A stretch of 64,000 nt of DNA, taken from the IMG/VR virus record IMGVR_UViG_3300042260_000337, one strand, 5' to 3'. This stretch comes from a virus. Taxonomy: Duplodnaviria; Caudoviricetes. The notes beneath the pieces were generated by a model. It had not been told where the DNA came from. It saw only the letters and a program-made list of their open reading frames with translations, and did no database searches. Positions 3,401 through 64,000 of the stretch are shown here, one piece after another. The position numbers were made by a program, and so were the translations under genes. Numbering within the stretch: the first letter of the stretch is position 1; every line of letters starts with the position of its first letter.

Positions 3401-3859
3401 TCAAGAGTTTTTCTGCTTTGGTGTGAGATCGTGATATGGACGAAGTTTCGGGTCAGTCTTTAGATTTTCGTTGAACACCAACCCATACCTCCAACCATCA
3501 TCAACCTGTTTCTGTATCCATCGGTTATGCTTTATCATATCCAAGTCTTGGTCGCCTTCGCAGTCTGGCAAATCAAACCGTTCAGTAGTCGTTACTTCCA
3601 TTTCGTAATCGGCATCGGTCCAGTTATTCAATATATCAAGTATTGCCTCTGCCTCTACCTCATCCACGTTACGAGTAAAGTTGAAGTCATATACATGTTT
3701 TCCTTCGCGAGAACGGTATATAACCGCAGTGCCTTCTTTTGTAGGAGAAAAGATATTTGGCAACGATTGCTTGAATATTCCAATCAACCCTCTGACATCG
3801 TGTTTGTCAAGGGGTTCATCAAGTATAACTCGTAAGTAATGTTTGAATGTCGTCGCCAT
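3401..3859 (-). CDS. Protein with C-terminal RyR (ryanodine receptor repeat) domain
   Basis: HNRWIQKQVDDGWRYG..KTDPKLRPYHDL. Confidence 0.7.
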   Translation of the reverse strand: MATTFKHYLRVILDEPLDKHDVRGLIGIFKQSLPNIFSPTKEGTAVIYRSREGKHVYDFNFTRNVDEVEAEAILDILNNWTDADYEMEVTTTERFDLPDCEGDQDLDMIKHNRWIQKQVDDGWRYGLVFNENLKTDPKLRPYHDLTPKQKNS

Positions 3860-3867
3860 ATTATTCC

Positions 3868-4206
3868 TTAGTTATTTCTTGTGTCGCTTACTGTTGAACT
3901 ACTTCCTGTGGCAGTCGTAGTCATAGATATATTTTCAAATGTCGGCATTGCAGTAGTGTGTTGAGTTGGAGTTCCACTGATATACAGTCCGAACCAAGCT
4001 GCCCCAACACCAACTAATACAGAAACCAACCCTGCTTGCTGCGTGTTTGGGTCAGGTAGCAACATAAACCACTGAACCACACTGTATAACAAGTAGATGT
4101 AAACTGATAGAAATATTCTTGGGAATACTCTCCACTTGTCAAAATATTCTGGTGCCAACCAAATAACCATAGCCATTTTAGACCATTTCATGTGCGTCTC
4201 CTTCAA
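3868..4206 (-). CDS. Small membrane protein (holin-like)
   Basis: Two hydrophobic segments (RIFLSVYIYLLYSVVQWF; AGLVSVLVGVGAAWFGLY). Confidence 0.5.
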   Translation of the reverse strand: MKETHMKWSKMAMVIWLAPEYFDKWRVFPRIFLSVYIYLLYSVVQWFMLLPDPNTQQAGLVSVLVGVGAAWFGLYISGTPTQHTTAMPTFENISMTTTATGSSSTVSDTRNN

Positions 4207-51809: not shown

Positions 51810-52373
51810 TTACAGCACAGATGCTTCCCGTAGAACGGCGAGTGCATCGTCCGATAGTTCAATCTGAACGCGCACGTTCAGTTCAAGGAGTTCGTCCTGA
51901 ATAGCTTGCTTGCGAAGTTTCAGTTCAGCAAGGCGGTTTTTGATTTCCGAAAGTTCGGCTTCATCAAAAATAGATGTGCGAATTTCTTCGTCAAAGCGAC
52001 CATAAGGGTCAGCCTCACGTCCCTTGATTTTGCCAATCTTACCGATTAGCACATCATGGGGAACCGCTGGTGCGATTCCAGAAATACGCTTCATAAGCAC
52101 AATCTCTTTTTCAAGACGTGCAACCGCAGCAAGGCGGGCAGAAATGCCATGTGCTTCGTTCTGTGAGCCAACAGCAACACGAATGTCGTAAAGAACATTC
52201 AGAAGTTGGTCACGAGTTGCAAGAGCAGCACCGAACTTGCTTTTTGCAAGGCTGATTTTGTCCGTAGGACGTTCAAACTCATTGATTGAAACTTCTGTAA
52301 CCAATGGAAGTGCATTGATTGCATCGTTTACTGCACGTTGAATAGCGTCTGCTTTGCGTAGAGAGATTTTCAT
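51810..52373 (-). CDS. All-helical coiled-coil protein (weak resemblance to DIP1984-type family)
   Basis: MKISLRKA..Q ... IQDELLELNVRVQIEL; SD GAGG before 52373. Confidence 0.55.
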   Translation of the reverse strand: MKISLRKADAIQRAVNDAINALPLVTEVSINEFERPTDKISLAKSKFGAALATRDQLLNVLYDIRVAVGSQNEAHGISARLAAVARLEKEIVLMKRISGIAPAVPHDVLIGKIGKIKGREADPYGRFDEEIRTSIFDEAELSEIKNRLAELKLRKQAIQDELLELNVRVQIELSDDALAVLREASVL

Positions 52374-52425
52374 TTCATTTCCTCGTTTGATTATTTTACT
52401 AATATACATGTAAGTGGTTGATTTG

Positions 52426-52614
52426 TCAAGGTTTTTTTTGAAGTTCAGCTATTTTTTCTTTTGCATCCAACACGTTGTGTAATGCGAAATCAAGAAGATA
52501 ATCTCCTTGTAATGGGTTGCCATTGTTGTGTTCCAAATACAAACGTAGATTTGATATGGCAGTCTCCACATAATCTTCTACTGTATTTTTTGTTGCTAAT
52601 GCAAACAGACCCAT
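52426..52614 (-). CDS. Hypothetical protein
   Basis: 62 aa ORF. Confidence 0.5.
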   Translation of the reverse strand: MGLFALATKNTVEDYVETAISNLRLYLEHNNGNPLQGDYLLDFALHNVLDAKEKIAELQKKP

Positions 52615-52631
52615 ATTGTTTTCCTTGAAAA

Positions 52632-52708
52632 TGGTGCCCCCGGCAGGATTCGAACCCGCAACAGTCGGTTTCGAAGACCGATGCTCTATCCAGTTGAACT
52701 ACAGAGGC
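52632..52708 (-). tRNA. tRNA-Arg(UCG)
   Basis: Cloverleaf, TCGGT-CTTCGAA-ACCGA, T-loop TTCGAAT, encoded CCA. Confidence 0.92.
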
Positions 52709-52714
52709 GTTATT

Positions 52715-53347
52715 TTAGTATAGACGATTTTCAACGTCAAAAGTGGTGATTGGACCTTTTTTGCCTTTCTCATAAACCCCAACACAAAGTCGGTTTGAGT
52801 AGAATGCTCCACAATCCAAGTTACAACGATTTATCGCAAAAATAGGACCATCGCCATGCGGGGTGTGACCATGGTTCAAATACATAGTCGGATGGTCAAA
52901 TGATGCATACCTACCACGTCTGCGCCAAATCATTGCGTGTTCAAGTTGCTGGCGTTCCTCAAGATGTTCATCCCAGTCGGCATGAACAAATATATTTTCA
53001 TCTTCGATGTGATAGATTTTTAGTTTGTTGATCCAACGCAATACTTCGTCGTCAATAAGTCCACCAAAACTATCCAGAACCTTTGGGTCATATAACTGAT
53101 TAGATGAGCACCAATCATACATCAACATATCTTCATGGTTGCCTTTGAGGCAAATGTATTCCCAACCAGCAGGAGGAACATCCATTAGATAGCGGACAAC
53201 ACCACCACTGTCTGGGCCACGGTCAACATAATCACCAAGGAAAATAATCTTTCCAGAATCTTGGCGTGAGAATATTTCCTTTAGTGCAAGATCAAGTAAA
53301 TCTTTTCTTCCATGTATATCTGGTATTGCGTAATATATTTCACTCAT
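52715..53347 (-). CDS. Metallophosphoesterase (lambda-type Ser/Thr phosphatase family)
   Basis: DIHG, GDYVDRG, GNHE, HGHTP, LDCGA. Confidence 0.9.
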   Translation of the reverse strand: MSEIYYAIPDIHGRKDLLDLALKEIFSRQDSGKIIFLGDYVDRGPDSGGVVRYLMDVPPAGWEYICLKGNHEDMLMYDWCSSNQLYDPKVLDSFGGLIDDEVLRWINKLKIYHIEDENIFVHADWDEHLEERQQLEHAMIWRRRGRYASFDHPTMYLNHGHTPHGDGPIFAINRCNLDCGAFYSNRLCVGVYEKGKKGPITTFDVENRLY

Positions 53348-53366
53348 AATGAATCTTTCTAAATAT

Positions 53367-53523
53367 TGGTCAAGTGGGAAGGACTTGAACCTTCAACTGA
53401 ATCGCAGCTTACACATACTCTTGCAAATGGGTTCGTCTCGAGCCTACTACCATCCACTCAATGTGCCTCACTGAAACTCCACGGCCCCTAATGCCGCTGC
53501 GTCTACCATTTCGCCACCACTCG
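53367..53523 (-). tRNA. tRNA-Leu(UAG)-like RNA with 86-nt variable arm (157 nt)
   Basis: Acceptor CGAGTGG/CCACTTG-A-CCA, Leu-type D-arm, GCGGC-ATTAGGG-GCCGT, T-arm GAAGG-TTCAAGT-CCTTC. Confidence 0.75.
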
Positions 53524-53542
53524 TAAGACGATTTTGAGAAAG

Positions 53543-53704
53543 TCAGCCCTTGTCAAAATCGTCTTGGGATTTATTACCCTTACGCAACTCAACCTTATCA
53601 TCACGGCGTTGCGCTTTTTTGCTCTTACCATGAGCACCGCTCTTTTTCGTAATCAAATGTTGCACGAAGGGATTACGAGCCTTCGGTAGTTTCTTTCGTT
53701 TCAT
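53543..53704 (-). CDS. Small highly basic protein (53 aa, MKRKKLPKARNPFVQHLITKKSGAHGKSKKAQRR...)
   Basis: Read manually; SD GGAG. Confidence 0.55.
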   Translation of the reverse strand: MKRKKLPKARNPFVQHLITKKSGAHGKSKKAQRRDDKVELRKGNKSQDDFDKG

Positions 53705-53982
53705 TTGTAATCTCCTTGATTTCTACCTTTGCTGTTGATTTATCAACTTCACTTGCATGGACAAATGCCATTGCATCTTCTTTTTTTGTGGTGATTGCCA
53801 CTATTTCATCGTCAACAGTCACCACAAACATTATTCTGTTTTCTCCGTTTCATAAGGAATGAACTCAACCGTCCATTTACCATCAGACCAAGTTTTCAGA
53901 TGTTTCATCCAATACTTGAGTTTGCCATACTTCTTCTGATGAAGACGAGTAAGGTAGGAAAGATTTCCACTATGGATATTGC

Positions 53983-54156
53983 TCATTCTTTGCTCCATTC
54001 GTAAACATCATCAAAGTCAAGACCTTGGGATTTCAGGTCGCTGGCGATTTTCTTAACTTCTTCAAGGTCACCGTCAAAACCAAGGTCTTCACGAATTGCT
54101 TCTTCGGTTTCACCGTGGAAGAACCAGCAGACAGCTTCTTTGAAAATCTTGGTCAT
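53983..54156 (-). CDS. Small acidic hypothetical protein
   Basis: Follows motif promoter 54191. Confidence 0.5.
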   Translation of the reverse strand: MTKIFKEAVCWFFHGETEEAIREDLGFDGDLEEVKKIASDLKSQGLDFDDVYEWSKE

Positions 54157-54206
54157 TTCGTCTCTCCCTCTTACTTGTATAGGTATACAGTGATTCGTGG
54201 AAAGAG

Positions 54207-54377
54207 TCAATAGTCTTTTACTATTTTCAGAGAAGTTTCTGCTTGAATAGCATCTGCTTCATCAATCGCTTCTTGTTCGGATAAACCAGAAAGTTCATCC
54301 CAGTTATCAGACCCAACCACCTTCACCGAAAAGGTGTCATCTTCCGAGTCTTGATAGATTGAAATATAAGATTTCAT
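54207..54377 (-). CDS. Small acidic hypothetical protein
   Basis: Start set at MKSYISIY. Confidence 0.45.
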   Translation of the reverse strand: MKSYISIYQDSEDDTFSVKVVGSDNWDELSGLSEQEAIDEADAIQAETSLKIVKDY

Positions 54378-54381
54378 TTCA

Positions 54382-54648
54382 TCACACGCGGGCAAAAGAA
54401 CGGCCAGAAAAGGCTTCAAGAATACCGTAATACCAATTTTCATTTGTATCACGAAGAATCGTAAGAGGGGCTTTGTCATTCGCCATTTCAGAAAAGTAAC
54501 TCTCAACCGTATGATTGGCAATCAATTCTTTCAAGAACTTTGCTTTAGTGAACGGGCTACCACGGTGTTTGAAACGAGCAACAAACTTGCCCTCGTAACG
54601 AACATATTCACCAGAAGTTTCGAACTTAGCTTTTACAAACTTCGTCAT
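54382..54648 (-). CDS. Hypothetical protein
   Basis: Follows motif promoter 54682; start MTKFVK. Confidence 0.55.
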   Translation of the reverse strand: MTKFVKAKFETSGEYVRYEGKFVARFKHRGSPFTKAKFLKELIANHTVESYFSEMANDKAPLTILRDTNENWYYGILEAFSGRSFARV

Positions 54649-54717
54649 TTCGTATCTCCTTCTCACAGTATGTTTATATACTGATTCGTGAAAGAAGTCA
54701 ACTACATTGTTGGAAAA

Positions 54718-54792
54718 TGGTGCTGCGAAAGAGGATTGAACTCTTGACCTCTTCATTACCAATGAAGTGCTCTACCACTGAGCTACCGCAGC
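54718..54792 (-). tRNA. tRNA-Thr(GGU)
   Basis: CTTCA-TTGGTAA-TGAAG; CCA. Confidence 0.92.
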
Positions 54793-54802
54793 ATAAAAGT
54801 AT

Positions 54803-55444
54803 TTATCGTCTTACTACCCAACCACGAAAGTTATAGCTTTGCCAAACTTGGTCTGCATGACCAAGATATTTCAATTCTTCGGTGATTTCGGCATTAGTCA
54901 AACAAAACATCTTACCAATCAAACTGTAATCTTTATCCAAAATCTCAGTATCGGTGAAGTGTTTTCGTTTTTGGTTGTAGTGTTCTTTTGTCATGATAGA
55001 GTTTAGTTTGGCGGTATCACTGAATACCTTTTCGGCAAGTAGCAGTGTTGCACCGTTGTCTATCAACTCTTTCAACTTTTTTACAACTTGTCGGCGTTTG
55101 TATTTACCAAGAAACTGTAACGTGAACATAGATACGATCAGGTCAACGGATGTAAAGTTTTCCAATGCAGTGATTACATCTTGGTTGAGAAACACAAAAT
55201 TTTTATCAGACGCCATTTCAACTACGTCAATACCTACGTAGAAGCCCTCTGTTGAGGCAGAGAGGTCATTGAGAAACTTACCAGTGCTACATCCAATGTC
55301 AACGCACTGACCCTCTGGTGGCATGTATTCAAGGGCTATGGCTCTAAAAACGTCATATAGTCCTTGGTAGTTTGGAATAGAAAGGTTGATGTGATTGTCG
55401 AAATCTTCAACCTTCTGAAAGTCAAACTTGTTGTGCATCATCAA
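54803..55444 (-). CDS. cmoA: CmoA-like (carboxy-SAM synthase family) SAM-dependent protein
   Basis: F....FD.HI..SIPNY, DIGCSTG, FTLQFL, AEK, EI..K..L..M, VWQSYNF align with CmoA. Confidence 0.75.
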   Translation of the reverse strand: MMMHNKFDFQKVEDFDNHINLSIPNYQGLYDVFRAIALEYMPPEGQCVDIGCSTGKFLNDLSASTEGFYVGIDVVEMASDKNFVFLNQDVITALENFTSVDLIVSMFTLQFLGKYKRRQVVKKLKELIDNGATLLLAEKVFSDTAKLNSIMTKEHYNQKRKHFTDTEILDKDYSLIGKMFCLTNAEITEELKYLGHADQVWQSYNFRGWVVRR

Positions 55445-56315
55445 ATTCCCGTATCAACTCACCAACATGCTGAATGACATTTACCGTCATTCCATTATAC
55501 ACGAACTTTTGAGTATCGGTTAGGTCGCAACCATCAAACCAATCAATTGGGAACGACTGTAGAAGTAGTCGTTCAGTTGGAGTAACCCTGCGTATTCTAT
55601 TTTCAGTGATTACCAAATCTGTAAACTGTTTATAGTCTCGTTTACAAAGAGTTGATGCTAATCCTGATTCGGTAAATTCTGCATTGCTTTGACGAGTGAT
55701 GTAGGTAAAGGCTTCTTGCCCTCTTTCTGGCTTCGCCTCAAAACTCCACTCAAAGCCTTGTGAGATAGATTCCACTTTTCTTCTGTGTTCGTCAGTATCA
55801 CGTTCTCTAAACTTGAAGATTTCGGTTCCAAGGGGGATTCCGTCACGGACGGCCACAATGTAAACTCTACGTCTTCGTTGGGGAACTCCAAAAAACTTGG
55901 AGTCGTAGATTGTCCAAGTCGCATCGTACCCGATTTGGGCAAGGTCGTGTAGGACGACTTCAATTCCTCTGCCAAGGATTGCAAAGACGTTTTCAATGAT
56001 CGCATATTTTGGTTTCCCTTCATCTATAAGTCGTAGATACTCTTTCCATAATCCAGAACGTTCACCAGTAATGCCAGCACCTTTTCCACCTACAGAAATG
56101 TCTTGGCAAGGGAACCCCCCGCACATAACATCATACTCTCCACCTTTCAGTGAGAGAGTTTTTACGTTGTCAAAAATAACAGCGTTAGGAAAATTCTTTT
56201 TTAGAACCCGTGTGGCTGGTTCTTCGATTTCACACATGGCAGTTATATCAAACCCTGCGCGTTGAAGCCCAAGTTCAAAGCCACCGATTCCACTGAATAG
56301 TCCTAATACTTTCAT
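55422..56315 (-). CDS. C5-cytosine DNA methyltransferase-family enzyme
   Basis: LFSGIGG, GGFPCQD, ENV, QRRRRVYIV, RR.TP.E...LQ.FP. Confidence 0.9.
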   Translation of the reverse strand: MKVLGLFSGIGGFELGLQRAGFDITAMCEIEEPATRVLKKNFPNAVIFDNVKTLSLKGGEYDVMCGGFPCQDISVGGKGAGITGERSGLWKEYLRLIDEGKPKYAIIENVFAILGRGIEVVLHDLAQIGYDATWTIYDSKFFGVPQRRRRVYIVAVRDGIPLGTEIFKFRERDTDEHRRKVESISQGFEWSFEAKPERGQEAFTYITRQSNAEFTESGLASTLCKRDYKQFTDLVITENRIRRVTPTERLLLQSFPIDWFDGCDLTDTQKFVYNGMTVNVIQHVGELIREFDDAQQV

Positions 56316-56358
56316 TTTTACCTCATTTTATACATCATATCAAAAAAACTCAAATAAG

Positions 56359-56550
56359 TCAAGCCACTAAAAAGTTGGCATCTTCCAAATCTTCTCGTAG
56401 GACAAAATCATCAGGAAGTTCAACAGTCTTTCCTTCCATCACGCTTTCAATAAGTCTTTTACTTTCAAGTAAACTTTTTCCAGTGTGCTTTCTAACGGCA
56501 TTTATAGCAGAATATGAGTTTGCTCTATGTTTGCATCCTATAATAAGCAT
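56359..56550 (-). CDS. Ribosomal protein bL12 (L7/L12) C-terminal-domain-like protein
   Basis: AN...INAVRKHTGKSLLESKRLIES ... LEDA vs bL12 [27 protein letters not shown] ... LEEA; 63 aa, no N-terminal domain. Confidence 0.7.
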   Translation of the reverse strand: MLIIGCKHRANSYSAINAVRKHTGKSLLESKRLIESVMEGKTVELPDDFVLREDLEDANFLVA

Positions 56551-56573
56551 TTCCTTTCTCCTTTAGAATAATA

Positions 56574-56649
56574 TGGTCCCCAAGGACGGAATCGAACCGC
56601 CGACACCATGCTCTTCAGGCAAGTGCTCTACCAACTGAGCTACTTGGGG
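56574..56649 (-). tRNA. tRNA-Phe(GAA)
   Basis: Loop CTGAAGA; CCA. Confidence 0.9.
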
Positions 56650-56657
56650 ACAACCAG

Positions 56658-56792
56658 TTTTGAGACATGGCGGTCAACCGCTCTTTAACGACAACGGTGG
56701 TCGGAACACTTATACATCAGGTTCCTATGACATAACTTTACATCGTTTAGCTTACAACGACTGGGAATACATGCTAACCCGCTGCTCCAAAA
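56658..56792. ncRNA. Candidate multibranched structured RNA
   Basis: Paired ends plus three hairpins (TCGTT/AACGA, GGAAC/GTTCC, ACCGTT/AGCGGT). Confidence 0.4.
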
Positions 56793-56802
56793 TATTACTA
56801 TC

Positions 56803-56879
56803 AGTGACACGAAAGGAGTTGAACCTTCATCTTTACTTTTTTGGAGTAACGCCTTATCCCTAGTTTTGGCCACGTGTAT
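56803..56879 (-). pseudogene. Degenerate tRNA-like sequence (Trp-like loop, no CCA)
   Basis: ACACG/CGTGT, GCC/GGC D-stem, TTACT-CCAAAAA-AGTAA, GAAGG-TTCAACT-CCTTT. Confidence 0.45.
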
Positions 56880-56895
56880 GTAGTAAAATAATCTA

Positions 56896-56970
56896 TGGTG
56901 CGGTCTAATGGATTTGAACCATTGACCTCTGTCGAGTCAGGACAGCGTTCTACCCCTGAACTAAGGCCGC
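56896..56970 (-). tRNA. tRNA-Val(GAC)
   Basis: CTGTC-CTGACTC-GACAG; CCA. Confidence 0.9.
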
Positions 56971-57692
56971 ATATCTATTTTCAAATTTTCTAACATGGTT
57001 CCGTTGAAATCAGCAAACTCAACCTTTTTTGTTGACAAGTATTTTTCTGCGACTAATTTAAGATGGTCATAGTTATCTACTATTGTCTTTTTACTTGGTG
57101 CTTTTAATTTAGATATATCAAATGGTGTTAGATTTTCTATTGGTGTATTACACAGTTCCATATTGGCAAAATCAACAACAGGATCAAAAGTAAGATTTTC
57201 CATATATACGATTTCATTATACTGAATATTAAAATCGTTTCTGCATATATATCCCAAATCCCATAACTGATTATCAACATACCATATAATCATATCATCT
57301 GTTATTTCAACTTTATCGAAGTTATGATATTCAACAAATTCTTTTTTTATATTTGCGATAGCAAGACTCAATGCACTTTGAAAGACATCTTTTCTTAATA
57401 TGACAATCGTATAATATTTTTTTTGGTAATATCGATCTATGACCCCATAGTCTTTCAAATCCACAATTTGAGTAATATGCGTTTTCATTACTACGGGGTC
57501 ATGTCGTTCAATGAAATTCAGCCGACTATTAAAAAGATTTGCTATTTCAGACGAAGATGTTATTTCTGGTGGTATTAGAAATGGTTCATTTACACAAACA
57601 TAATTTTTGTTCAGACTTGTCATGTGATGACAAATCATTCGTTGCATATATGTCGAACCATTTCTTGGATTACTTATTATTTGAATATTCAT
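56961..57692 (-). CDS. Sulfotransferase-like protein (Stf0 type)
   Basis: IISNPRNGST PAPS-binding loop; LRKD.F.SALS. Confidence 0.65.
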   Translation of the reverse strand: MNIQIISNPRNGSTYMQRMICHHMTSLNKNYVCVNEPFLIPPEITSSSEIANLFNSRLNFIERHDPVVMKTHITQIVDLKDYGVIDRYYQKKYYTIVILRKDVFQSALSLAIANIKKEFVEYHNFDKVEITDDMIIWYVDNQLWDLGYICRNDFNIQYNEIVYMENLTFDPVVDFANMELCNTPIENLTPFDISKLKAPSKKTIVDNYDHLKLVAEKYLSTKKVEFADFNGTMLENLKIDMRP

Positions 57693-57737
57693 TGTGTTAT
57701 TCCTTTGAATAATATTTATTCAATAGTGTGCTGCTAC

Positions 57738-57923
57738 GCCAAAGGAAAACAGAGCCAAAAATATCATAACGAGCGATTATGTTTCTGTTACTGTCCGCAT
57801 TTTCCCGCCCAGCCTCTCCCTATACCACTTGTTTTCACAGCCCGATATAGTCTCTTTGCGTTCACGGTGCTTCGTTCCACTCTTTAAAGGATGTGCTGCC
57901 TCTAAGCCAACCTCCTACTGAAC
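57738..57923 (-). ncRNA. Structured RNA containing a copy of 23S rRNA H43/H44 (uL11-binding GTPase-associated centre)
   Basis: AGGAGGTTGGCTTAGAGGCAGCACATCCTTTAAAGA (57916-57881) vs conserved 23S AGGAGGTTGGCTTAGAAGCAGCCATCCTTTAAAGA; closed by GTTCA/TGAAC; further helices downstream. Confidence 0.75.
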
Positions 57924-58631
57924 TTTCAAGTAATCATATTCTCCGCTTAGTAACTTTTCAACAAACGCAGGAACCATTTCTGTTGCAACCCCATCCATAC
58001 TTTCTGTAAACATATACTTGTTTTCAGAAGGATGTAGATTGATTTCAACAGTATGTGCTCTTGCTTTTTTCTTTGCAGTCTTCACAAATCCAGCCGCAGG
58101 ATAAACTGTTCCAGATGTTCCAATCGCAACAAAGATGTCACAACGTCTAAGTGCATCATCAATCACTTCCATGTAGTATGGAAATTCACCGAACCAAACG
58201 ATGTTTGGGCGTAATGCAGGATGATAGCAATCATCACAAATATCGTGTGTTTGCATCACTTCATTTGCAGTTGTAATGTCTCCACATTTTCTACAAATAG
58301 ATTCGTGCAAACTTCCATGCATATGCAATACGTTTTTTGACCCTGCTTTTTCATGTAAGTCATCTACGTTTTGAGTAATCAAAGTAACATCAAAATTTGG
58401 ATTATGCTGTAATGCTGCTAAAGCATAATGCGCTTTGTTTGGTCTTGCATCGGCAACTTCTTTACGTCTATGGTTATAGAAGTCTAATACAAGTTTTGGA
58501 TTTTTATAGAAACCTTCTGGGGTTGCTACATCAGTTACATCATATTCATTCCAACGTCCATCGGTATCACGAAATGTTTTGATTCCGCTTTCTGCGGAAA
58601 TTCCCGCCCCTGTCAATATGCATATTTTCAT
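57915..58631 (-). CDS. cobB: Sir2/CobB-family NAD-dependent protein deacylase
   Basis: GAGISAESGIKTFRD, FY..RR, TQNVDDLHE.AG, HMHGSL, LRP.IVWFGE, GTSG.VYPAA, EIN. Confidence 0.93.
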   Translation of the reverse strand: MKICILTGAGISAESGIKTFRDTDGRWNEYDVTDVATPEGFYKNPKLVLDFYNHRRKEVADARPNKAHYALAALQHNPNFDVTLITQNVDDLHEKAGSKNVLHMHGSLHESICRKCGDITTANEVMQTHDICDDCYHPALRPNIVWFGEFPYYMEVIDDALRRCDIFVAIGTSGTVYPAAGFVKTAKKKARAHTVEINLHPSENKYMFTESMDGVATEMVPAFVEKLLSGEYDYLKVQ

Positions 58632-58649
58632 TTCGTGTCCTTATAAGTT

Positions 58650-58725
58650 TGGTGGTGCTGGTAGGAATCGAACCTACGACAACCTAGTTATGAGCCAGGC
58701 ACTCTACCGACTGAGTTACAGCACC
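58650..58725 (-). tRNA. tRNA with CAU anticodon (elongator Met or Ile2)
   Basis: CCTGG-CTCATAA-CTAGG; paired G1-C72; CCA. Confidence 0.88.
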
Positions 58726-58745
58726 GAAAATTCTAGCCAGAAGCA

Positions 58746-58818
58746 AAACTGTTACGGGATTCGAACCCGCCTCTCCCCCGACTCCGCAGGAGTATCCTTT
58801 CCTATAGACGAAACAGTC
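58746..58818 (-). pseudogene. tRNA-like sequence with aberrant anticodon arm, no CCA
   Basis: GACTGTT/AACAGTT, GCGGG-TTCGAAT-CCCGT; anticodon loop 6 or 8 nt. Confidence 0.5.
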
Positions 58819-58893
58819 TACCTATCAACACCTCTACGACGATAATTGAAGATAGTCTTCTAGCTAAGGTAGTCGCAGCTACCTATTCTATGT

Positions 58894-58970
58894 TGGTGGC
58901 GGGTGAGGGATTTGAACCCCCGATCTTCTGGTTATGAGCCAGACGAGATAGACCACTTCTCCAACCCGCA
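58894..58970 (-). tRNA. Initiator-type tRNA-fMet(CAU)
   Basis: U1xC72 mismatch, GGAG/CTCG D-arm, TCTGG-CTCATAA-CCAGA; CCA. Confidence 0.88.
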
Positions 58971-58975
58971 TCAAT

Positions 58976-59091
58976 TGGAGGTCCGTTAGCCGATATAGAG
59001 TGGAACCTATATATCCGACCTTGCCGCTTTCGCAGCAAATATTTCACATCATTTTCTCTAATGAGAAGAACAGAGAGGTATGACACGGACC
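58976..59091 (-). ncRNA. 116-nt CCA-terminated structured RNA
   Basis: GGTCCGT/ACGGACC-T-CCA; TTGCTGC-GAAA-GCGGCAA; ATATAG-GTTCCACT-CTATAT. Confidence 0.65.
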
Positions 59092-59105
59092 AACATCTTA
59101 CTGTA

Positions 59106-59195
59106 TGGCGGTGTATACAGGATTCGAACCTGTGGCAGTCTTTCAACTGCGATGGTTTAGCAAACCACTGGTTTCAGCCACTCACCCAATACACC
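59106..59195 (-). tRNA. tRNA-Ser(GCU)
   Basis: Loop TTGCTAA, long V-arm, G73, CCA. Confidence 0.92.
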
Positions 59196-59196
59196 A

Positions 59197-59391
59197 TTAT
59201 GTTTTCAGTTGTAAGTTTTTCTCTTTTATGAAGTTAGCAATATCGCTTGGCCTAACACGAACTTCCCAATCGTCAATTACATATCCGATTTCGCGTTTGT
59301 CAAATGCTCCAACATATCTAATTTTGACATGTGAACGTCCAACAGAATATTCAAATGTTTGACCATTTACTTCAATCTTACGATAACTCAT
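59197..59391 (-). CDS. Hypothetical protein inside tRNA array
   Basis: 64 aa, SD GGAG. Confidence 0.6.
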   Translation of the reverse strand: MSYRKIEVNGQTFEYSVGRSHVKIRYVGAFDKREIGYVIDDWEVRVRPSDIANFIKEKNLQLKT

Positions 59392-59434
59392 TTATTTCTC
59401 CTTACGGGTTGCTAGGCACAGTGCCTATGGAATA

Positions 59435-59509
59435 TGGCGAGAGAGGTAGGAATCGAACCCACGACACCGAGTTTTGGAGACTCGTGTTCTACCACTGAAC
59501 TACACTCCC
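59435..59509 (-). tRNA. tRNA-Trp(CCA)
   Basis: CGAGT-CTCCAAA-ACTCG; CCA. Confidence 0.92.
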
Positions 59510-59517
59510 ATTTATAG

Positions 59518-59597
59518 TGGTATCAATCCCCTTACCCCGATGATGCTATCTTTGGACAACAGTATCGCTACTGCTTTTCTATGATGGATAGATTGAT
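59518..59597 (-). ncRNA. 80-nt CCA-terminated structured RNA
   Basis: ATCAATC/GATTGAT-A-CCA; GCAGTA-GCGA-TACTGT. Confidence 0.5.
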
Positions 59598-59607
59598 TAC
59601 ATATTTT

Positions 59608-59683
59608 TGGTGAACGGAGTGGGAATCGAACCCACGACAACAGAATTAAAAGTTCCGTGCTCTACCAACTGAGCTACCCGTCC
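59608..59683 (-). tRNA. tRNA-Lys(UUU)
   Basis: CGGAA-CTTTTAA-TTCTG; CCA. Confidence 0.92.
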
Positions 59684-59788
59684 GTAAACTTTACTGGTTC
59701 TCACGTCTTGAACCGAATGCTGTCTAGTATTGCGACTCCGACTCCCCGCTAATTGCAGGATGGAAGTATCTAGATCAAACACTTATAT

Positions 59789-59865
59789 TGGCACTTCCGA
59801 CAGGATTCGAACCTGTAACCTTTCGCTTCGTAGGCGAATGCTCTATCCAGTTGAGCTACGGAAGT
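59789..59865 (-). tRNA. tRNA-Arg(ACG)
   Basis: TTCGC-CTACGAA-GCGAA; CCA. Confidence 0.92.
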
Positions 59866-59918
59866 ATAAACAGTCGGAGTTTCTTTTAACGTGCTGCCGA
59901 ATCAGACACAGGTATTTT

Positions 59919-60022
59919 TGGTGAGTGTTTATCCATCGCAGGAGGCGCTTCCGCTAGTGGTGTACGGCCACATCAGACCTTGGACATTATGTGGCCACAT
60001 AATGTCTTGTCACTTCACACTC
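59919..60022 (-). ncRNA. 104-nt CCA-terminated structured RNA
   Basis: GAGTGT/ACACTC-A-CCA; perfect 24-nt palindrome GACATTATGTGGCCACATAATGTC (59983-60006). Confidence 0.55.
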
Positions 60023-60028
60023 ATAGTT

Positions 60029-60112
60029 TGGTGGGTGTCCTTGGAATCGAACCAAGCATAGGTTTCCCTGACGGAGTTACAGTCCGCTGCCTCACCTTGA
60101 GGCGGCACACCC
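60029..60112 (-). tRNA. tRNA-Tyr(GUA)
   Basis: GCGGA-CTGTAAC-TCCGT, V-arm, CCA. Confidence 0.92.
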
Positions 60113-60120
60113 AAATGTTA

Positions 60121-60247
60121 TGGTGCTGGATTTTTTCGGCGTCAACACTATGAGCGAGGAAGATAATCCCTCATGGGACTCTATCGCTTATCAACTGCTG
60201 ACGTTTTGACTTTACGTGGATTAGAATAAACCGCTTCCACAACCAGC
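60121..60247 (-). ncRNA. 127-nt CCA-terminated structured RNA
   Basis: GCTGG/CCAGC-A-CCA; GTGGA/TCCAC, CGTCAGC/GTTGACG, AGCGA/TCGCT, AGTCCC/GGGATT. Confidence 0.6.
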
Positions 60248-60307
60248 TTAGATGACCGACCTGTAATATGGTGACTTGACCATATCAGGGAGCATCGGTC
60301 GTAATAT

Positions 60308-60396
60308 TGGAGGACGTGGTGTGATTCGAACACACGGTATAACTTTCGTTAGCCGGATTTGCAATCCGGTGCCTTGAACCGCTCGGCCACACGTCC
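60308..60396 (-). tRNA. tRNA-Cys(GCA) with long variable arm
   Basis: CCGGA-TTGCAAA-TCCGG, U73, V-arm TAAC-GAAA-GTTA, CCA. Confidence 0.88.
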
Positions 60397-60453
60397 ATTT
60401 TTATCTCTTGCATTATGTATAACCTGATTCGCATCAAGAGTCAACAACTATTT

Positions 60454-60543
60454 TGGCGGATGGTGAGGGATTCGAACCCCCGCTACACTTTCATGTAGCC
60501 GCCCTTTCCAGGGGCGGATAATAAACCACTCTAACAACCATCC
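60454..60543 (-). tRNA. tRNA-Ser(GGA)
   Basis: CGCCC-CTGGAAA-GGGCG, long V-arm, G73, CCA. Confidence 0.9.
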
Positions 60544-60559
60544 ATTGTTTATGGTATTT

Positions 60560-60638
60560 TGGTCCTGCGGGAAGGATTCGAACCTTGCTCTCTCTGATCC
60601 ACAATCAGATGTGCTAACCGTTAACACTACTTCGCAGG
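60560..60638 (-). tRNA. tRNA-His(GUG), A73, no G-1, 2-nt bulge in acceptor stem
   Basis: TCTGA-TTGTGGA-TCAGA; CCTGCG(AA)G/CCGCAGG-A-CCA; -1 base is T. Confidence 0.82.
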
Positions 60639-60646
60639 ATTATTTT

Positions 60647-60724
<78 letters not shown>

Positions 60725-60735
60725 ACATTTTAGTG

Positions 60736-60855
60736 TGGTGCGTATGGCTGGACTTGAACCAGCATGTCACCATGACTCATTCAACCACCGTTGAACTTAT
60801 GGATTTGAACCACCTTACGTCCGTCGACGTGCGTCTACCATTTCGCCACATACGC
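60736..60855 (-). ncRNA. tRNA-Leu-type body without anticodon loop, with a second T-loop hairpin (120 nt)
   Basis: GCGTATG/CATACGC-A-CCA, Leu D-arm, ACGTC-GACG-GACGT, GTGG-TTCAAAT-CCAT, TTCAAC/GTTGAA, GCTGG-TTCAAGT-CCAGC. Confidence 0.7.
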
Positions 60856-60862
60856 AAATATT

Positions 60863-60937
60863 TGGTTGCCCCTACTGGATTTGAACCAGTGACCTATCCC
60901 TTATCAGGGGATTGCTCTACCACTGAGCTAAGAGGCA
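60863..60937 (-). tRNA. tRNA-Ile(GAU)
   Basis: ATCCC-CTGATAA-GGGAT; CCA. Confidence 0.92.
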
Positions 60938-60945
60938 TCATTATT

Positions 60946-61034
60946 TGGAAGATAGTATCAAGGGTCGCAAATTCCTTGTGTAGCCCACTTCAAAGCAAAC
61001 TTAATTACCCAAGCTACTGCGATAGAATACTATC
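60946..61034 (-). ncRNA. 89-nt CCA-terminated structured RNA
   Basis: GATAGTATT/GATACTATC-TT-CCA; GTAGCTT/GGGCTAC; AAGG/CCTT hairpin. Confidence 0.5.
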
Positions 61035-61044
61035 ATCAAAATAA

Positions 61045-61130
61045 TGGTGTGGGGGGCTGGATTCGAACCAGCGTTGCTTTTCAGCGCCTGATTTACAGTC
61101 AGGTGGTTTCAACCGCTCACCCACCCCCAC
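61045..61130 (-). tRNA. tRNA-Tyr(GUA), second copy with different body
   Basis: CCTGA-CTGTAAA-TCAGG, V-arm, CCA. Confidence 0.92.
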
Positions 61131-61230
61131 AAGAACACAGTGACCCTAACCGTTCTAACCGCTGAACTACATCGCAGTTTGAAGCCGCAATGGAGGGATT
61201 TGAACCCCCGACCTGTGTAGTATGTGTATA
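61131..61230 (-). ncRNA. Circularly permuted tRNA-like gene (3' half transcribed before 5' half)
   Basis: AGGTC-GGGGG-TTCAAAT-CCCTC-CATTGCG-G-CTTCAAA-C-TGCGATG-TA-GTTC-AGCGGTTA-GAAC. Confidence 0.7.
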
Positions 61231-61235
61231 TTTTC

Positions 61236-61324
61236 GTAATGAGTGCTCTATCTGGATTCGAACCCTCGGACAGCATCAGCCCTACACCTACCGATCTGCT
61301 GACCGGAAAATAGGAGATCATTAC
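61236..61324 (-). ncRNA. T-loop-containing structured element
   Basis: GTAATGA/TCATTAC closing stem; TCAGC/GCTGA; GG-TTCGAAT-CC. Confidence 0.4.
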
Positions 61325-61330
61325 ATAGCC

Positions 61331-61413
61331 CGCACAACCACGAATCGAACGTGTTTTCTTGACAACTGTCTATATAGACCAACTACCAGGTAGCTACAAC
61401 TGGCTGTTGTGCG
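61331..61413 (-). ncRNA. tRNA-like element with 8-bp acceptor + 4-bp T-stem
   Basis: CGCACAAC/GTTGTGCG; CACG-TTCGATT-CGTG; no canonical D or anticodon arm. Confidence 0.5.
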
Positions 61414-61459
61414 ATTGTTGATGAGGTTTACCATGAGTCATTTTAACTCATCAACAATA

Positions 61460-61592
61460 TTTCTGTTTTCAACTGTAACAACTGTTGGACTCGAACCAAC
61501 CCCACCTTGTCCTGAAACTACTCGTAGTTATACTACTTTCGCCCAAGGTTTATGACACCCTTGCACCGTATTGTTACATGTGAAAACAGAAA
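61460..61592 (-). ncRNA. tRNA-like element enclosed in 12-bp helix
   Basis: TTTCTGTTTTCA/TGAAAACAGAAA; TGTAACAA/TTGTTACA; GTTGG-TTCGAGT-CCAAC. Confidence 0.45.
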
Positions 61593-61616
61593 TTATTTCA
61601 TTCTGTTTTTTCTAAA

Positions 61617-61644
61617 TTGTCAAAGAGCAGTGAAGCATCGCTTC
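61617..61644 (-). promoter_or_regulatory. rrn-like boxB hairpin + boxA antitermination signal
   Basis: GAAGC-GAT-GCTTC followed by TGCTCTTTGACAA, downstream of promoter 61670-61689. Confidence 0.7.
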
Positions 61645-61703
61645 GTTTTCTTACATTGTCTTTATATACTGATTCGCTTATAAAGTCAACATCTTTTTTC
61701 AAT

Positions 61704-61738
61704 AAAAAACCCTCCGAAGATTTTCATCTTGGAGGGTT
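61704..61738 (-). terminator. Rho-independent terminator (candidate attenuator)
   Basis: AACCCTCCAAGAT-GAAA-ATCTTCGGAGGGTT-TTTT. Confidence 0.8.
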
Positions 61739-61771
61739 CCTGTGTTCGTTAGAACTGTATGGATATGTAAG

Positions 61772-61867
61772 TTACATTCCCATACCAAGACCCTCGCAGC
61801 CGCTATACATAAAGCGACCACACCAAGTGCGGCGAATAATCATCTTATGTGTAGAAGCGGTTTTCAT
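61772..61867 (-). CDS. Candidate 31-aa leader peptide MKTASTHKMIIRRTWCGRFMYSGCEGLGMGM
   Basis: ATG 61867 to TAA 61772; AGGA upstream; between dual promoter and terminator. Confidence 0.55.
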   Translation of the reverse strand: MKTASTHKMIIRRTWCGRFMYSGCEGLGMGM

Positions 61868-61891
61868 TGAAAGTCTTAGTCCTTTGTTTGT

Positions 61892-61933
61892 TTCTATTCT
61901 TTATTTATAGCACTATCAGAGTGATTCGTCAAG
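61892..61933 (-). promoter_or_regulatory. Overlapping sigma70-type (TTGACG-N17-TATAAA) and T4 late-type (TATAAATA) promoter
   Basis: ttgacg aatcactctgatagtgc tataaata; related ATAAATA late-type motifs also at plus 2245, 4219, 7526, 17524, 27800, 43545, 47375, 49908, 54800, 57713. Confidence 0.65.
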
Positions 61934-61976
61934 CATTATCTTCTATTTTATTTATCTTTTTTACATTTTTTCTGTA

Positions 61977-63038
61977 TTATAGACCGTAACGTGTCTTATG
62001 AGCATTGAAGTTTTGAAGTAGTTCTGTTGCACTCAGTGCTCTGTTATAGAACCGTATTCCGCCTAACTTTCCATCTAACCAAGCAAAACTGTTATTGGTG
62101 GAACCAAACTGCAAAAACTCTGGACTATCAAAAAGGGCAGTTGTTGACAAATCACTTCTTGTGAATTTCGCAACTCCATTCCTGTAACCAGTAAGTGATG
62201 CCCCGCTTCTGACTACTGCAACATGATACCAAGTTCCAGTGACCATTGGTTCAGAGTTAGACCATAATCCATGATATAACCAGTTTGTGCCATCAAAACT
62301 ATATCTGAATGTTGGGCGATTTACCGCGCCAAACGCATCTATATATAAACCATAACTTCTGTTTGAGGACGCACCTTCTTTTTCAAAAATGGTTTGGTTA
62401 TTCACAGTATGTGCATCAATATTTACCCATACTTCCCAAGTGAAGTCGTTTGCGCCAACATCCAAAATGTCAGCTTGTGTATCACAAATAGCAGTAGCAG
62501 TAACATCAAAATCTAACACTCCACCATTTGAACTCAAATAAGTTACATCAGTGAGCGTTCCGTTGTATGCATTTGGTGAAAGGTCGTTCAACACAGTTCC
62601 AGTGCCAGGATAACTGTTGCCATCGCCAGGTTCGTAGTAAAGCTGTAGGCCACGTGTAGTCACAATATCGGTAGTTTCAGAAATGACTTCATATGACGCT
62701 GTTATTTGTATATCATTGGCAATACTTGCAAAAGAAACAATCGCATCAGATTCTTCAAGGTAAATGCCAATTTCTTTAGTCATCAAAGAAACAGAGGAAT
62801 TTGCAGGAACAGACACAGTGCTAAAAATAGAGTATGTAATGCCATTTCTTGAAATTTGAACTGTAACAAGAGCAGGATATAGTCTATCCACGTTAGTCGC
62901 TACTATTTGATTTACTTTTATTAGCTTACCAGAACCAGCCTCATTGAACAAAATGACTTTTGGTGTTAGTTGTAGAACGGAGGAAACGCTACTTTCTCCG
63001 TCTATATTTAGACTATTTGCTATATTTGGTGCAGTCAT
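61977..63038 (-). CDS. Virion-associated protein with C-terminal LamG/concanavalin-A-like domain
   Basis: GL.LYY..G..SYPG.GT..DLS; FTWEVWVN; WYHVAVVR; LGGIRFYNRALSA.E..QNFNA.K.RYGL. Confidence 0.75.
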   Translation of the reverse strand: MTAPNIANSLNIDGESSVSSVLQLTPKVILFNEAGSGKLIKVNQIVATNVDRLYPALVTVQISRNGITYSIFSTVSVPANSSVSLMTKEIGIYLEESDAIVSFASIANDIQITASYEVISETTDIVTTRGLQLYYEPGDGNSYPGTGTVLNDLSPNAYNGTLTDVTYLSSNGGVLDFDVTATAICDTQADILDVGANDFTWEVWVNIDAHTVNNQTIFEKEGASSNRSYGLYIDAFGAVNRPTFRYSFDGTNWLYHGLWSNSEPMVTGTWYHVAVVRSGASLTGYRNGVAKFTRSDLSTTALFDSPEFLQFGSTNNSFAWLDGKLGGIRFYNRALSATELLQNFNAHKTRYGL

Positions 63039-63114
63039 ATTATACCTCGTGATCAACATGTATACTTGATTTGAAGTTTTTTGTCAAGAATTATATGCTG
63101 TTTTATTTATCTAT

Positions 63115-64000
63115 TTATATTACGATTACGCCAAGTGGCGGAAACCCATTGAACGCAACCGTTGAGTATGTAGTTGTGTATGCTCCACAGTTCTTGATAA
63201 AGATTCTATCACCAGACTTCAAGTCAGTTGGAAACTTTACTTTGTTAGTTTCATACAAAACATCAGCACTATCACAGGTAGGACCAGCAAGAACACAGGA
63301 CATTGTATCATTGCTACGGCAATCTGGTGTCACAAACTGATACTTGATTGCTTCTTCTGCGGTTTCTGCAAGGCCACTGAACTTACCAATATCCAAGTAA
63401 ACCCAACGAACTTCGTCACCTTCATTTTTAGTTGACACAAGTAGAACATTGGCAGAAATCATACCAACATTTCCAACCATACCACGGCCAGGTTCTGCCA
63501 TGATATACTCAACAACGCCAAACTTATCCGAAATCATCTGTGTGAGTAGTTGGCAGTATGCCTCTGAATCGGTGATAGGAACGCCATAGAAGGCAGGAAA
63601 TCCACCACCTATGTTGAGTAGCTTCATATCAAAGCCATTGCTTACAGCGTCTTTCCAGACCTCTGAGGCATATGTCAGAGTGTCATCCCACATTTCTGGA
63701 TGACGAGTTTGCGACCCAACATGGAAGCTAATACCGATTGGTTTCAGCCCAACAGATTTAGCATACTTCATGAGAGGAATAGCTTTTGATTGTCCGCATC
63801 CAAACTTACGACTCAATGGCCATTCCGCTTGTGAGTTTGTAACTAATAGGCGAATGAATACTTCACTGTTCGGTGCGTATTTTGCTATCTTGTCTAGTTC
63901 TTCTTCTGCATCTGCTGCATAAAGTTTGATACCTTGTGCATACGCATATTCAAGGTCTGCTGGACGCTTTACCGTGTTTCCAAAACTAATGTGTTCTGGT
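63115..64000 (-). CDS. Ornithine/lysine decarboxylase (PLP, group IV), 5'-truncated at window edge
   Basis: Frame open to window end (PEHISFGNTVKR..AEWPLSRKFGC); SFHVGSQ, NIGGGFP, EPGR, GPTCDS.D, GAYT. Confidence 0.92.
   Translation of the reverse strand, partial: PEHISFGNTVKRPADLEYAYAQGIKLYAADAEEELDKIAKYAPNSEVFIRLLVTNSQAEWPLSRKFGCGQSKAIPLMKYAKSVGLKPIGISFHVGSQTRHPEMWDDTLTYASEVWKDAVSNGFDMKLLNIGGGFPAFYGVPITDSEAYCQLLTQMISDKFGVVEYIMAEPGRGMVGNVGMISANVLLVSTKNEGDEVRWVYLDIGKFSGLAETAEEAIKYQFVTPDCRSNDTMSCVLAGPTCDSADVLYETNKVKFPTDLKSGDRIFIKNCGAYTTTYSTVAFNGFPPLGVIVI

Follow-up and report, generated by a model that had tools for sequence, protein, structure and literature searches.

How phages regulate the tRNA genes that they carry is, to our knowledge, essentially unknown, and this question is raised by a short element lying ahead of a tRNA array in the DNA analyzed here, a stretch of 64,000 nucleotides (hereafter the window) taken from the 202.7-kb IMG/VR phage record IMGVR_UViG_3300042260_000337 (G000). 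The element consists of a promoter, an open reading frame (ORF) of 31 codons, a hairpin that spans its stop codon and an intrinsic terminator. A first-pass annotation had proposed that it acts as a leader-peptide attenuator in which a slowed ribosome frees an antiterminator and increases read-through into the tRNA genes. Our sequence analyses indicate that the element is quite probably a ribosome-mediated (leader-peptide) and multivalent transcription attenuator ahead of a phage tRNA operon, sensing the supply of the very tRNAs that it controls, and that the phage probably makes more of these tRNAs only when the leader codons are decoded slowly. The source record, with a completeness of 56% as estimated by CheckV, contains 40 tRNA genes in three clusters, and judged by its clamp loader it is closest, among cultured phages, to the Pseudomonas jumbo phages of the PA5oct group (56% identity).

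The role of phage tRNAs has been debated for decades, the proposals including codon compensation, the replacement of degraded host tRNAs and the escape from anticodon nucleases (PMC10264068), and regulation is not discussed in this recent paper on phage tRNA function (PMC10264068). A search of the full-text literature, with subscription-only titles outside its reach, returned no description of leader-peptide or attenuator control of phage tRNA genes.

The ORF, the stop-codon hairpin, the terminator and the GAGGGT box of the first-pass annotation are all present where it had placed them, on the minus strand. The features of the locus are listed below; here and throughout, coordinates are window positions unless another record is named.

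61904-61932, minus strand: promoter P1, sigma-70-type, with the -35 element TTGACG (61932-61927), a 17-nt spacer and the -10 element TATAAA (61909-61904).
61913-61925, minus strand: palindrome CACT-N5-AGTG within the P1 spacer (counterpart in the related locus L014 at 10248-10260).
61869-61884, minus strand: 5' untranslated region (5' UTR), made up of the Shine-Dalgarno sequence AAGGA (61884-61880) and region 1.
61880-61869, minus strand: region 1, ACUAAGACUUUC, upstream partner of the box, with a predicted anti-antiterminator role.
61772-61867, minus strand: leader ORF of 31 codons plus TAA (61774-61772).
61785-61795, minus strand: region 2, the box GAGGGTCTTGG / GAGGGUCUUGG, 5' strand of the antiterminator base.
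61757-61785, minus strand: apical stem of the antiterminator, 29 nt, with the stop codon in its 5' strand and loop.
61744-61755, minus strand: small side hairpin within the antiterminator, in the predicted fold.
61731-61742, minus strand: region 3, CAGGAACCCUCC, 3' strand of the antiterminator base, overlapping the base of the terminator's 5' arm.
61736-61710, minus strand: intrinsic terminator CCCTCCAAGAT / GAAA / ATCTTcGGAGGG, a GC-rich stem of 11 bp interrupted by one bulge, with T6 directly behind it at 61709-61704.
61661-61689, minus strand: promoter P2, TTGACT-17-TATAAA, directly after the terminator.
58650-61130, minus strand: tRNA array proposed to be controlled, 13 contiguous genes (Tyr Ile Met His Ser Cys Tyr Arg Lys Trp Ser Met Met).

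The leader RNA would measure about 200 nt from P1, and 575 nt separate the T-run from the first tRNA gene, which lies about 530 nt beyond P2; four further tRNA genes follow the 13-gene array and reach 52632. The AAGGA sequence stands 12 nt from the AUG, and the stop codon falls 21 nt after the start of the box. The sequence GGAGGGTTTT occurs in the window only at the attenuator terminator, which a simple terminator scanner had missed owing to its one-base bulge.

Relatives of the locus were retrieved by synteny, using the neighboring ornithine-decarboxylase-like gene as an anchor, which yielded L014 with its close variant L066, L067 and L071. All of them carry a promoter, a short ORF, a hairpin over the stop codon, a terminator and adjoining tRNA genes. 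The leader ORF and the antiterminator are conserved among relatives, a conservation that extends to the wider family described below. The leader ORF is kept in all four close lineages with lengths of 26-31 codons, and was also called by the gene caller in L005, which together with L006 represents a near-identical copy of the locus and is uninformative. Three indels (+6, -3 and -3 nt), all of them in-frame, separate the window ORF from that of L014, and the two have 15 of the 31 residues in common. When the upstream lectin-like gene was used as the anchor, only identical copies (L005, L006) or unrelated phages were obtained; exact and loose DNA patterns derived from the window/L014 pair recovered only L014 plus chance matches, and a blastn search of the window element and four other family members against cultured phages gave no match. 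The leader peptide has no match to Pfam or PHROG families, and a library of 1.8 billion proteins returned only the window and L014 peptides. A hok-like type I toxin mRNA was considered, since the box pairs with the start region, and was rejected: the peptide is rich in Arg, Lys and Gly, has no hydrophobic span and varies freely across the family.

The predicted pairings of the leader are those of an attenuator, in which region 1 pairs with region 2, region 2 with region 3, and region 3 with the 3' arm of the terminator (1:2 / 2:3 / 3:4). The window transcript folds with a z-score of -6.3, none of 200 shuffled sequences folding as well, and the corresponding values are -6.8 for L067, -5.4 for L014 and -2.7 for L071. 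The whole antiterminator (61797-61731) has a predicted energy of -27.4 kcal/mol and the terminator hairpin one of -19.1 kcal/mol. The box, which shares its core sequence with the terminator's 3' arm, pairs as GAGGGTCTTGG with CAGG-A-ACCCTC (61742-61732) through 10 bp and one bulge, and the stop-codon hairpin forms the apical portion of this single long antiterminator hairpin. Of the two registers proposed beforehand for the pairing of the box with the terminator's 5' arm, GAGGGT:ACCCTC is the one recovered here, both as the 10-bp helix and in the folds of cut transcripts, whereas GTCTTGG:CCAAGAT is possible in the sequence but appears in no predicted fold of any lineage.

The alternative helices were also compared with shuffled sequences and among the relatives. 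When the ORF was shuffled, the complementarity of the box to the 5' arm had P=0.02 and that of the box to the 5' UTR had P<0.001, both beating the shuffles in most lineages. Region 1 pairs with the box in the minimum free energy (MFE) fold of the window, and RNAalifold applied to five sequences returned two helices, namely the terminator and a long-range helix joining the stretch just 5' of the AUG with the GAGGG box near the end of the ORF, the latter (the region 1:box helix) with compensatory changes. When transcripts were truncated immediately ahead of the terminator's 3' arm, the box folded onto the base of the 5' arm and its 5' flank in all five sequences, through GAGGGU/CUUG with CAGG/A/ACCCUC in the window, through GG, GGG and GUUUCG with CGAAGC, CCC and CC in L014, and through a perfect 8-bp helix in L067. 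Column-based covariation was dropped, given that the MAFFT columns were 1-2 nt out of register between lineages, and swap and permutation tests on duplex energies were used instead. In the swap test, the cognate region 1:box pairing was the best for the window, L014 and L067, and the cognate box:region 3 pairing was the best for the window and for L014/L066. The terminator sequence of L014 and L066 is different, and the antiterminator is kept through GUUUCG:CGAAGC, outside the terminator. Moreover, few substitutions separate L066 from L014; two of them strengthen the antiterminator, and one of these two weakens the terminator.

As seen from the sequence and its comparison, the GAGGGU box has three mutually exclusive states, in that it can be paired with region 1, paired with the base of the terminator's 5' arm (the antiterminator) or left unpaired while the terminator forms. 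According to the mechanism that we propose, with no ribosome on the leader, region 1 would capture the box, the terminator would form and transcription would stop. A ribosome that reaches the stop codon would cover or unwind the box strand, with the same outcome of termination. A ribosome held on the codons that precede the box would leave it free, the antiterminator would close once region 3 has been made, and the polymerase would continue through P2 into the tRNA genes. As the pre-box codons are mostly those of the downstream tRNAs, the circuit would be a demand-driven negative feedback in which a shortage of the cognate charged tRNAs leads to more of their transcription.

The element is not restricted to the close lineages. 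A search pattern that fixes the box and the terminator cores (box, 35-60 nt, CCCTCC, 8-18 nt, GGAGGGTTTTT) matched 53 IMG/VR loci, 52 of which belong to the family, the remaining one (L099) being unrelated. In 52 of the 53 matches there is a short ORF (19-38 codons) whose end falls 10-25 nt beyond the start of the box. An ORF with an AGGA-like Shine-Dalgarno sequence is present in 29 of the 33 distinct family sequences, and wherever an ORF was called (29 members) its stop codon is within this range of 10-25 nt from the box start, in the 5' strand or the loop of the antiterminator. The tRNA genes are found within 3 kb downstream on the same strand in 49 of the 53 loci, and three more are cut off by contig ends. 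Overall, the combination of ORF, stop position, antiterminator and terminator recurs in about 21 families that have diverged from each other, and in every case it adjoins a tRNA array. The first tRNA gene begins only 7-22 nt after the T-run in several members, a gap that leaves no room for a promoter, so that those tRNAs would be made only by read-through.

The conservation within this family concerns the RNA and not the peptide. The box is invariant across the 28 aligned members (a pattern-selected set) and is read in frame 0, as Glu-Gly, in most of them and in frame 2 in several families; a box read in two different frames must be conserved as RNA. The peptides, of 19-38 residues, are not alignable across the family. 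The segment between the box and CCCUCC forms one long hairpin in all 26 of the pattern-matched sequences that were folded, with antiterminator energies of -10 to -27 kcal/mol compared to -16 to -23 kcal/mol for the terminators. The two halves of this segment are complementary even when the fixed core is excluded, the cognate combinations having -8.4 kcal/mol and the others -4.7 kcal/mol (permutation P=5e-5). In the nascent RNA, the partner of the box is the translation start region in 10 of 28 sequences and lies mostly inside the ORF in the remainder. The recurrence in about 21 families, the conservation of the box as RNA and the short gaps before the tRNA genes support the earlier suggestion of a leader-peptide attenuator in which a slow ribosome would free the antiterminator. 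As a separate observation, the locus L137 (minus strand) holds two cassettes in tandem within one tRNA region, the second at 3713-3896 and the upstream one with the variant core GCCTCC/GGAGGC, which indicates that the family is wider than the search pattern.

The composition of the leaders provides further evidence of what would be sensed. Of the 23 pre-box codons in the window, 16 can be read by the 13 tRNAs of the contiguous array (background 0.32, P=2e-4), and the leader samples 12 of the 14 anticodon classes of the array, compared to a mean of 8.0 for random codon draws (P=0.01). For 21 family representatives, a leader's own array reads a fraction of 0.56 of its codons, versus 0.36 for the arrays of the others (P=2e-5; 0 of 50,000 permutations), and when the members were reduced to seven broad types the cognate assignment of leaders to arrays was the best of all 5040 permutations. 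The match is most evident in L145, where the array encodes tRNAs for Glu, Ser, Tyr, Gly and Cys alone and reads 20 of the 24 pre-box codons (P=3e-9).

Genomes that carry two elements remove the effect of genome-wide codon usage from this comparison. The two elements of L137 match their own sub-arrays at 15/23 and 18/23 codons and the crossed ones at 4/23 and 2/23 (33/46 vs 6/46, P=1.4e-8), and on the 330-kb contig that holds L105 and L111 the matches were 11/24 and 22/23 for the own sub-arrays and 6/24 and 1/23 for the crossed ones (33/47 vs 7/47, P=8e-8). Moreover, the leaders match the downstream tRNAs at 73 of 175 codons and equal-sized upstream sets at 32 of 175 (P=2.5e-6). The description of the element as a general sensor of translation stress is therefore not upheld, given that the codon choice of each leader follows the tRNA set encoded behind it. 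It seems likely that the tRNA genes of large phages are divided into sub-operons, and that a separate multivalent attenuator, written in the cognate codons, gates each of them; these attenuators would measure in real time the decoding capacities that are short and allow just those sets to be transcribed, the window element being a member of one widespread family of such sensors, the GAGGGU-box family. The shortages measured in this way could come from codon mismatch, from the decay of host tRNAs or from anticodon nucleases.

The promoters of the locus determine how much would depend on this control. Sites of the type TTGAC-N18-TATAWW, which both P1 and P2 fit, number seven in the window against 0.26 expected (27-fold), and all are on the coding strand. 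P1 is kept in L014, L066, L067 and L071. It had been described as a dual early/late promoter, a description that is unsupported in its late half: the proposed late promoter TATAAATA is not enriched, with 3 occurrences in the window against 2.6 expected and 10 in the 202.7-kb record against about 26 expected from base composition. The first-pass annotation had also cautioned that a separate promoter lies downstream of the terminator; this caution was correct, and an equivalent of P2 is conserved in L014, L066 and L067, while it is absent from L071 and from most family members. The tRNA genes thus have a promoter of their own in the window and in these three loci and lack one where the gap to the first tRNA is 7-22 nt. 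As P2 also feeds the array, the attenuator in the window would be a regulated supplement and not the sole gate.

Several points weigh against the interpretation of the element as a codon-sensing attenuator. The presence of P2 directly after the terminator, in the window and its three nearest lineages, means that the array does not depend on read-through there. The element is absent from L011 and L012, which have the same anchor gene, from the PA5oct group, where tandem promoters without any leader are found ahead of the tRNAs, and from tRNA cluster C of the same genome; no second element was found ahead of the other tRNA clusters of this genome. With a search pattern of fixed cores, covariation can be demonstrated only in the variable extension and in L014/L066. 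Array swaps restricted to the four closest lineages show no lineage-specific codon match, the signal being apparent only family-wide. The spacing between the Shine-Dalgarno sequence and the AUG is long (12 nt). In the window lineage, the competitor strand (region 1) is the spacer between the Shine-Dalgarno sequence and the AUG, outside the ORF, and being upstream of the AUG it is directly masked only by a ribosome at the start or on about the first eight codons; a stall further into the ORF might let region 1 pair again with the box, and mid-ORF stalls may be less effective. Finally, at equilibrium the terminator stays in the MFE fold under every ribosome-sized mask, so that any switch must be kinetic; we do not take this result as a refutation.

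Some of these points would be accommodated by other explanations of the locus. A stand-alone micro-gene, in which the 31-residue peptide is the product, the terminator ends its mRNA, the array is transcribed from P2 and the fold-back of the box only limits translation, would account for the promoter and terminator that the ORF has of its own, for the strong promoter right after the terminator in the window, L014, L066 and L067, and for the 15 shared residues and in-frame indels of the window/L014 pair. It is nevertheless distinctly unlikely, considering that the peptide is neither conserved across the family nor a member of any Pfam or PHROG family and finds only itself and its L014 counterpart in the protein library, that the box is conserved in two reading frames, and that a co-varying antiterminator would be useless to a plain micro-gene; such a gene also leaves unexplained the matching of codons to tRNAs, and in several members the tRNA genes start as little as 7 nt after the T-run. 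Even less probable, in our judgment, is a non-coding structured RNA or a processing or insulation module, whose hairpin and U-tract would stabilize or end upstream transcripts or mark a processing site, with the ORF being incidental. The ORF and its AGGA-like Shine-Dalgarno sequence in 29 of 33 distinct sequences, with a stop at a fixed distance from the box, the strictly in-frame indels, a codon match that is seen only in the frame of the ORF and the lack of an Rfam family match all speak against such a module, in spite of the very stable fold and of a region that is rich in non-canonical stable RNAs.

The position of region 1 leads to a further explanation, in which the RNA switch is real and is set by initiation capacity, that is, by the loading of ribosomes at the start site, or by a protein or RNA factor, with the codon match being secondary. 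A ribosome at the start site would free the box most directly, and the palindrome in the P1 spacer, kept in L014 and L066, could be an operator for a factor. We hold this explanation to be unlikely, since in most members the upstream partner of the box is inside the ORF, as in classical attenuators, and since a switch of this type would not need a leader composition that tracks the downstream, and not the upstream, tRNA sets even within single genomes. A leader-peptide attenuator that responds to the decoding of its own codons is the interpretation that we retain.

Other observations were made around the promoters. The palindrome CACT-N5-AGTG is kept in the window, L014 and L066 despite different bases at its five central positions, which makes it a candidate operator. 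A conserved box of the form GCTnTTTGA(A/C)AATTT follows promoters that head tRNA arrays (window 61615-61630, minus strand; L014 ~10522-10540; G000 ~119340-119360). It is located behind P2 and behind the counterparts of P2 in L014 and L067, and also precedes tRNA cluster C, and may represent a processing or regulatory site. Cluster C itself has no leader or terminator and is preceded, at G000 119085-119310 just outside the window, by three tandem copies of a promoter module (AAAAAAGTTCTTGAC...), and a duplicated promoter is likewise located ahead of a tRNA cluster in PA5oct (L153 1100-1235).

The region between P2 and the array, and the tRNA genes themselves, also showed unusual features. The first structured RNA after P2 (61468-61578, minus strand) is closed by an acceptor-like helix of 9 bp and includes a T-arm of canonical appearance, GGTTCGAGTCC; neither ARAGORN nor Rfam called a tRNA at this site, and its fold was not significant against shuffles (z -1.6). 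The same T-arm with a different body is found at the equivalent place in L014 (10560-10680) and L067 (11660-11780). Immediately upstream of the first tRNA-Tyr, at 61131-61230 (minus strand), there is a weak Rfam match to YrlA (Y RNA-like), with 30.4 bits against a gathering score of 69. Transfer RNAs with the amber-reading anticodon CTA, labeled "Pyl" by ARAGORN, occur in G000 (121642-121718), L014 (11906-11980) and L067 (13133-13207), and the cluster upstream of the window includes tRNAs with the unusual A34 anticodons Tyr-ATA and Ser-ACT.

Two of the related loci deserve separate mention. In L071 (3393-3561) there is no second promoter, and a basic ORF of 51 residues starts 7 nt after the terminator 3' arm GGAGGG, its would-be Shine-Dalgarno sequence; if GGAGGG serves in that way, the choice between terminator and antiterminator would also set the translation of this ORF. 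An identity of this 51-residue product as an ArfA-like protein was considered and rejected, with no Pfam or PHROG support. The locus L067 shares a single metagenome contig with L075 (Ga0208439_1000001, 368,898 bp), the two ends of which carry diverged decarboxylase-leader regions beside near-identical tRNA arrays. This contig is most likely a wrap-around assembly of a genome of about 341 kb that joins two strains, and it is evidence that one leader can replace another beside a conserved array.

If the proposed control is correct, the supply of phage tRNAs is controlled by demand, attenuation is extended from amino-acid and synthetase genes to tRNA genes, and each leader represents a list of the codons that the phage treats as limiting. 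The mechanism would be of a known kind, but the class of genes that it acts on would be new, as would its multi-codon design. Besides, the family is suited to small cassettes and simple reporters and could provide modular parts for the sensing of individual tRNA availability, and it gives an annotation rule for dozens of unannotated mini-ORFs and for the division of tRNA arrays into operons.

Comparison with known systems places the element close to the classical attenuators in its architecture and apart from them in its sequence, its target and its codons. An Rfam search with cmscan over 52000-64000 at E<=1 gave no match within 61700-61900, either to the Trp, His, Leu, Thr and Phe leaders or to the T-box. 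The likeness to trpL, hisL, leuL and pheL lies in the short leader ORF, the intrinsic terminator before the genes, the antiterminator that shares a terminator strand, the predicted competitor helix upstream and a stop codon positioned for a ribosome completing the ORF to block the antiterminator. Unlike these leaders, with which it has no sequence or Rfam match, the window element would control phage tRNAs and not biosynthetic enzymes, its leader samples many codons without a run of any single one, the competitor strand precedes the AUG in the window lineage, and the terminator is followed by a second promoter. Mixed regulatory codons through which one leader reports several aminoacyl-tRNAs are known from the ilvGMEDA (Ile/Leu/Val) and thr (Thr/Ile) leaders; here, up to 12 anticodon classes are represented in 31 codons, and the response would raise the tRNAs themselves and not the amino-acid supply.

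In pheST, with its pheM leader, and in the T-box systems, genes of the translation apparatus are likewise set by the state of the tRNA pool through the choice between antiterminator and terminator. The pheM leader, however, senses a single amino acid, and the T-box binds uncharged tRNA directly, by means of a specifier codon and the T-box sequence and with no ORF, whereas the window family keeps an ORF with a Shine-Dalgarno sequence. The same architecture and logic are found in the Caulobacter phage phiCbK, in which an annotated ORF of 45 codons, gp083, precedes a rho-independent terminator, likewise annotated, and then a block of tRNA genes for Pro, Pro, Lys, Lys, Leu (three), and Ser (two). 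About half of the residues of gp083 are Ser, Leu, Pro or Lys, according to a count of its translation in the one cassette that was checked. This cassette has no detectable sequence homology to the GAGGGU-box family, and its presence in phiCbK means that cultured systems exist in which experiments on the proposed control can be performed.

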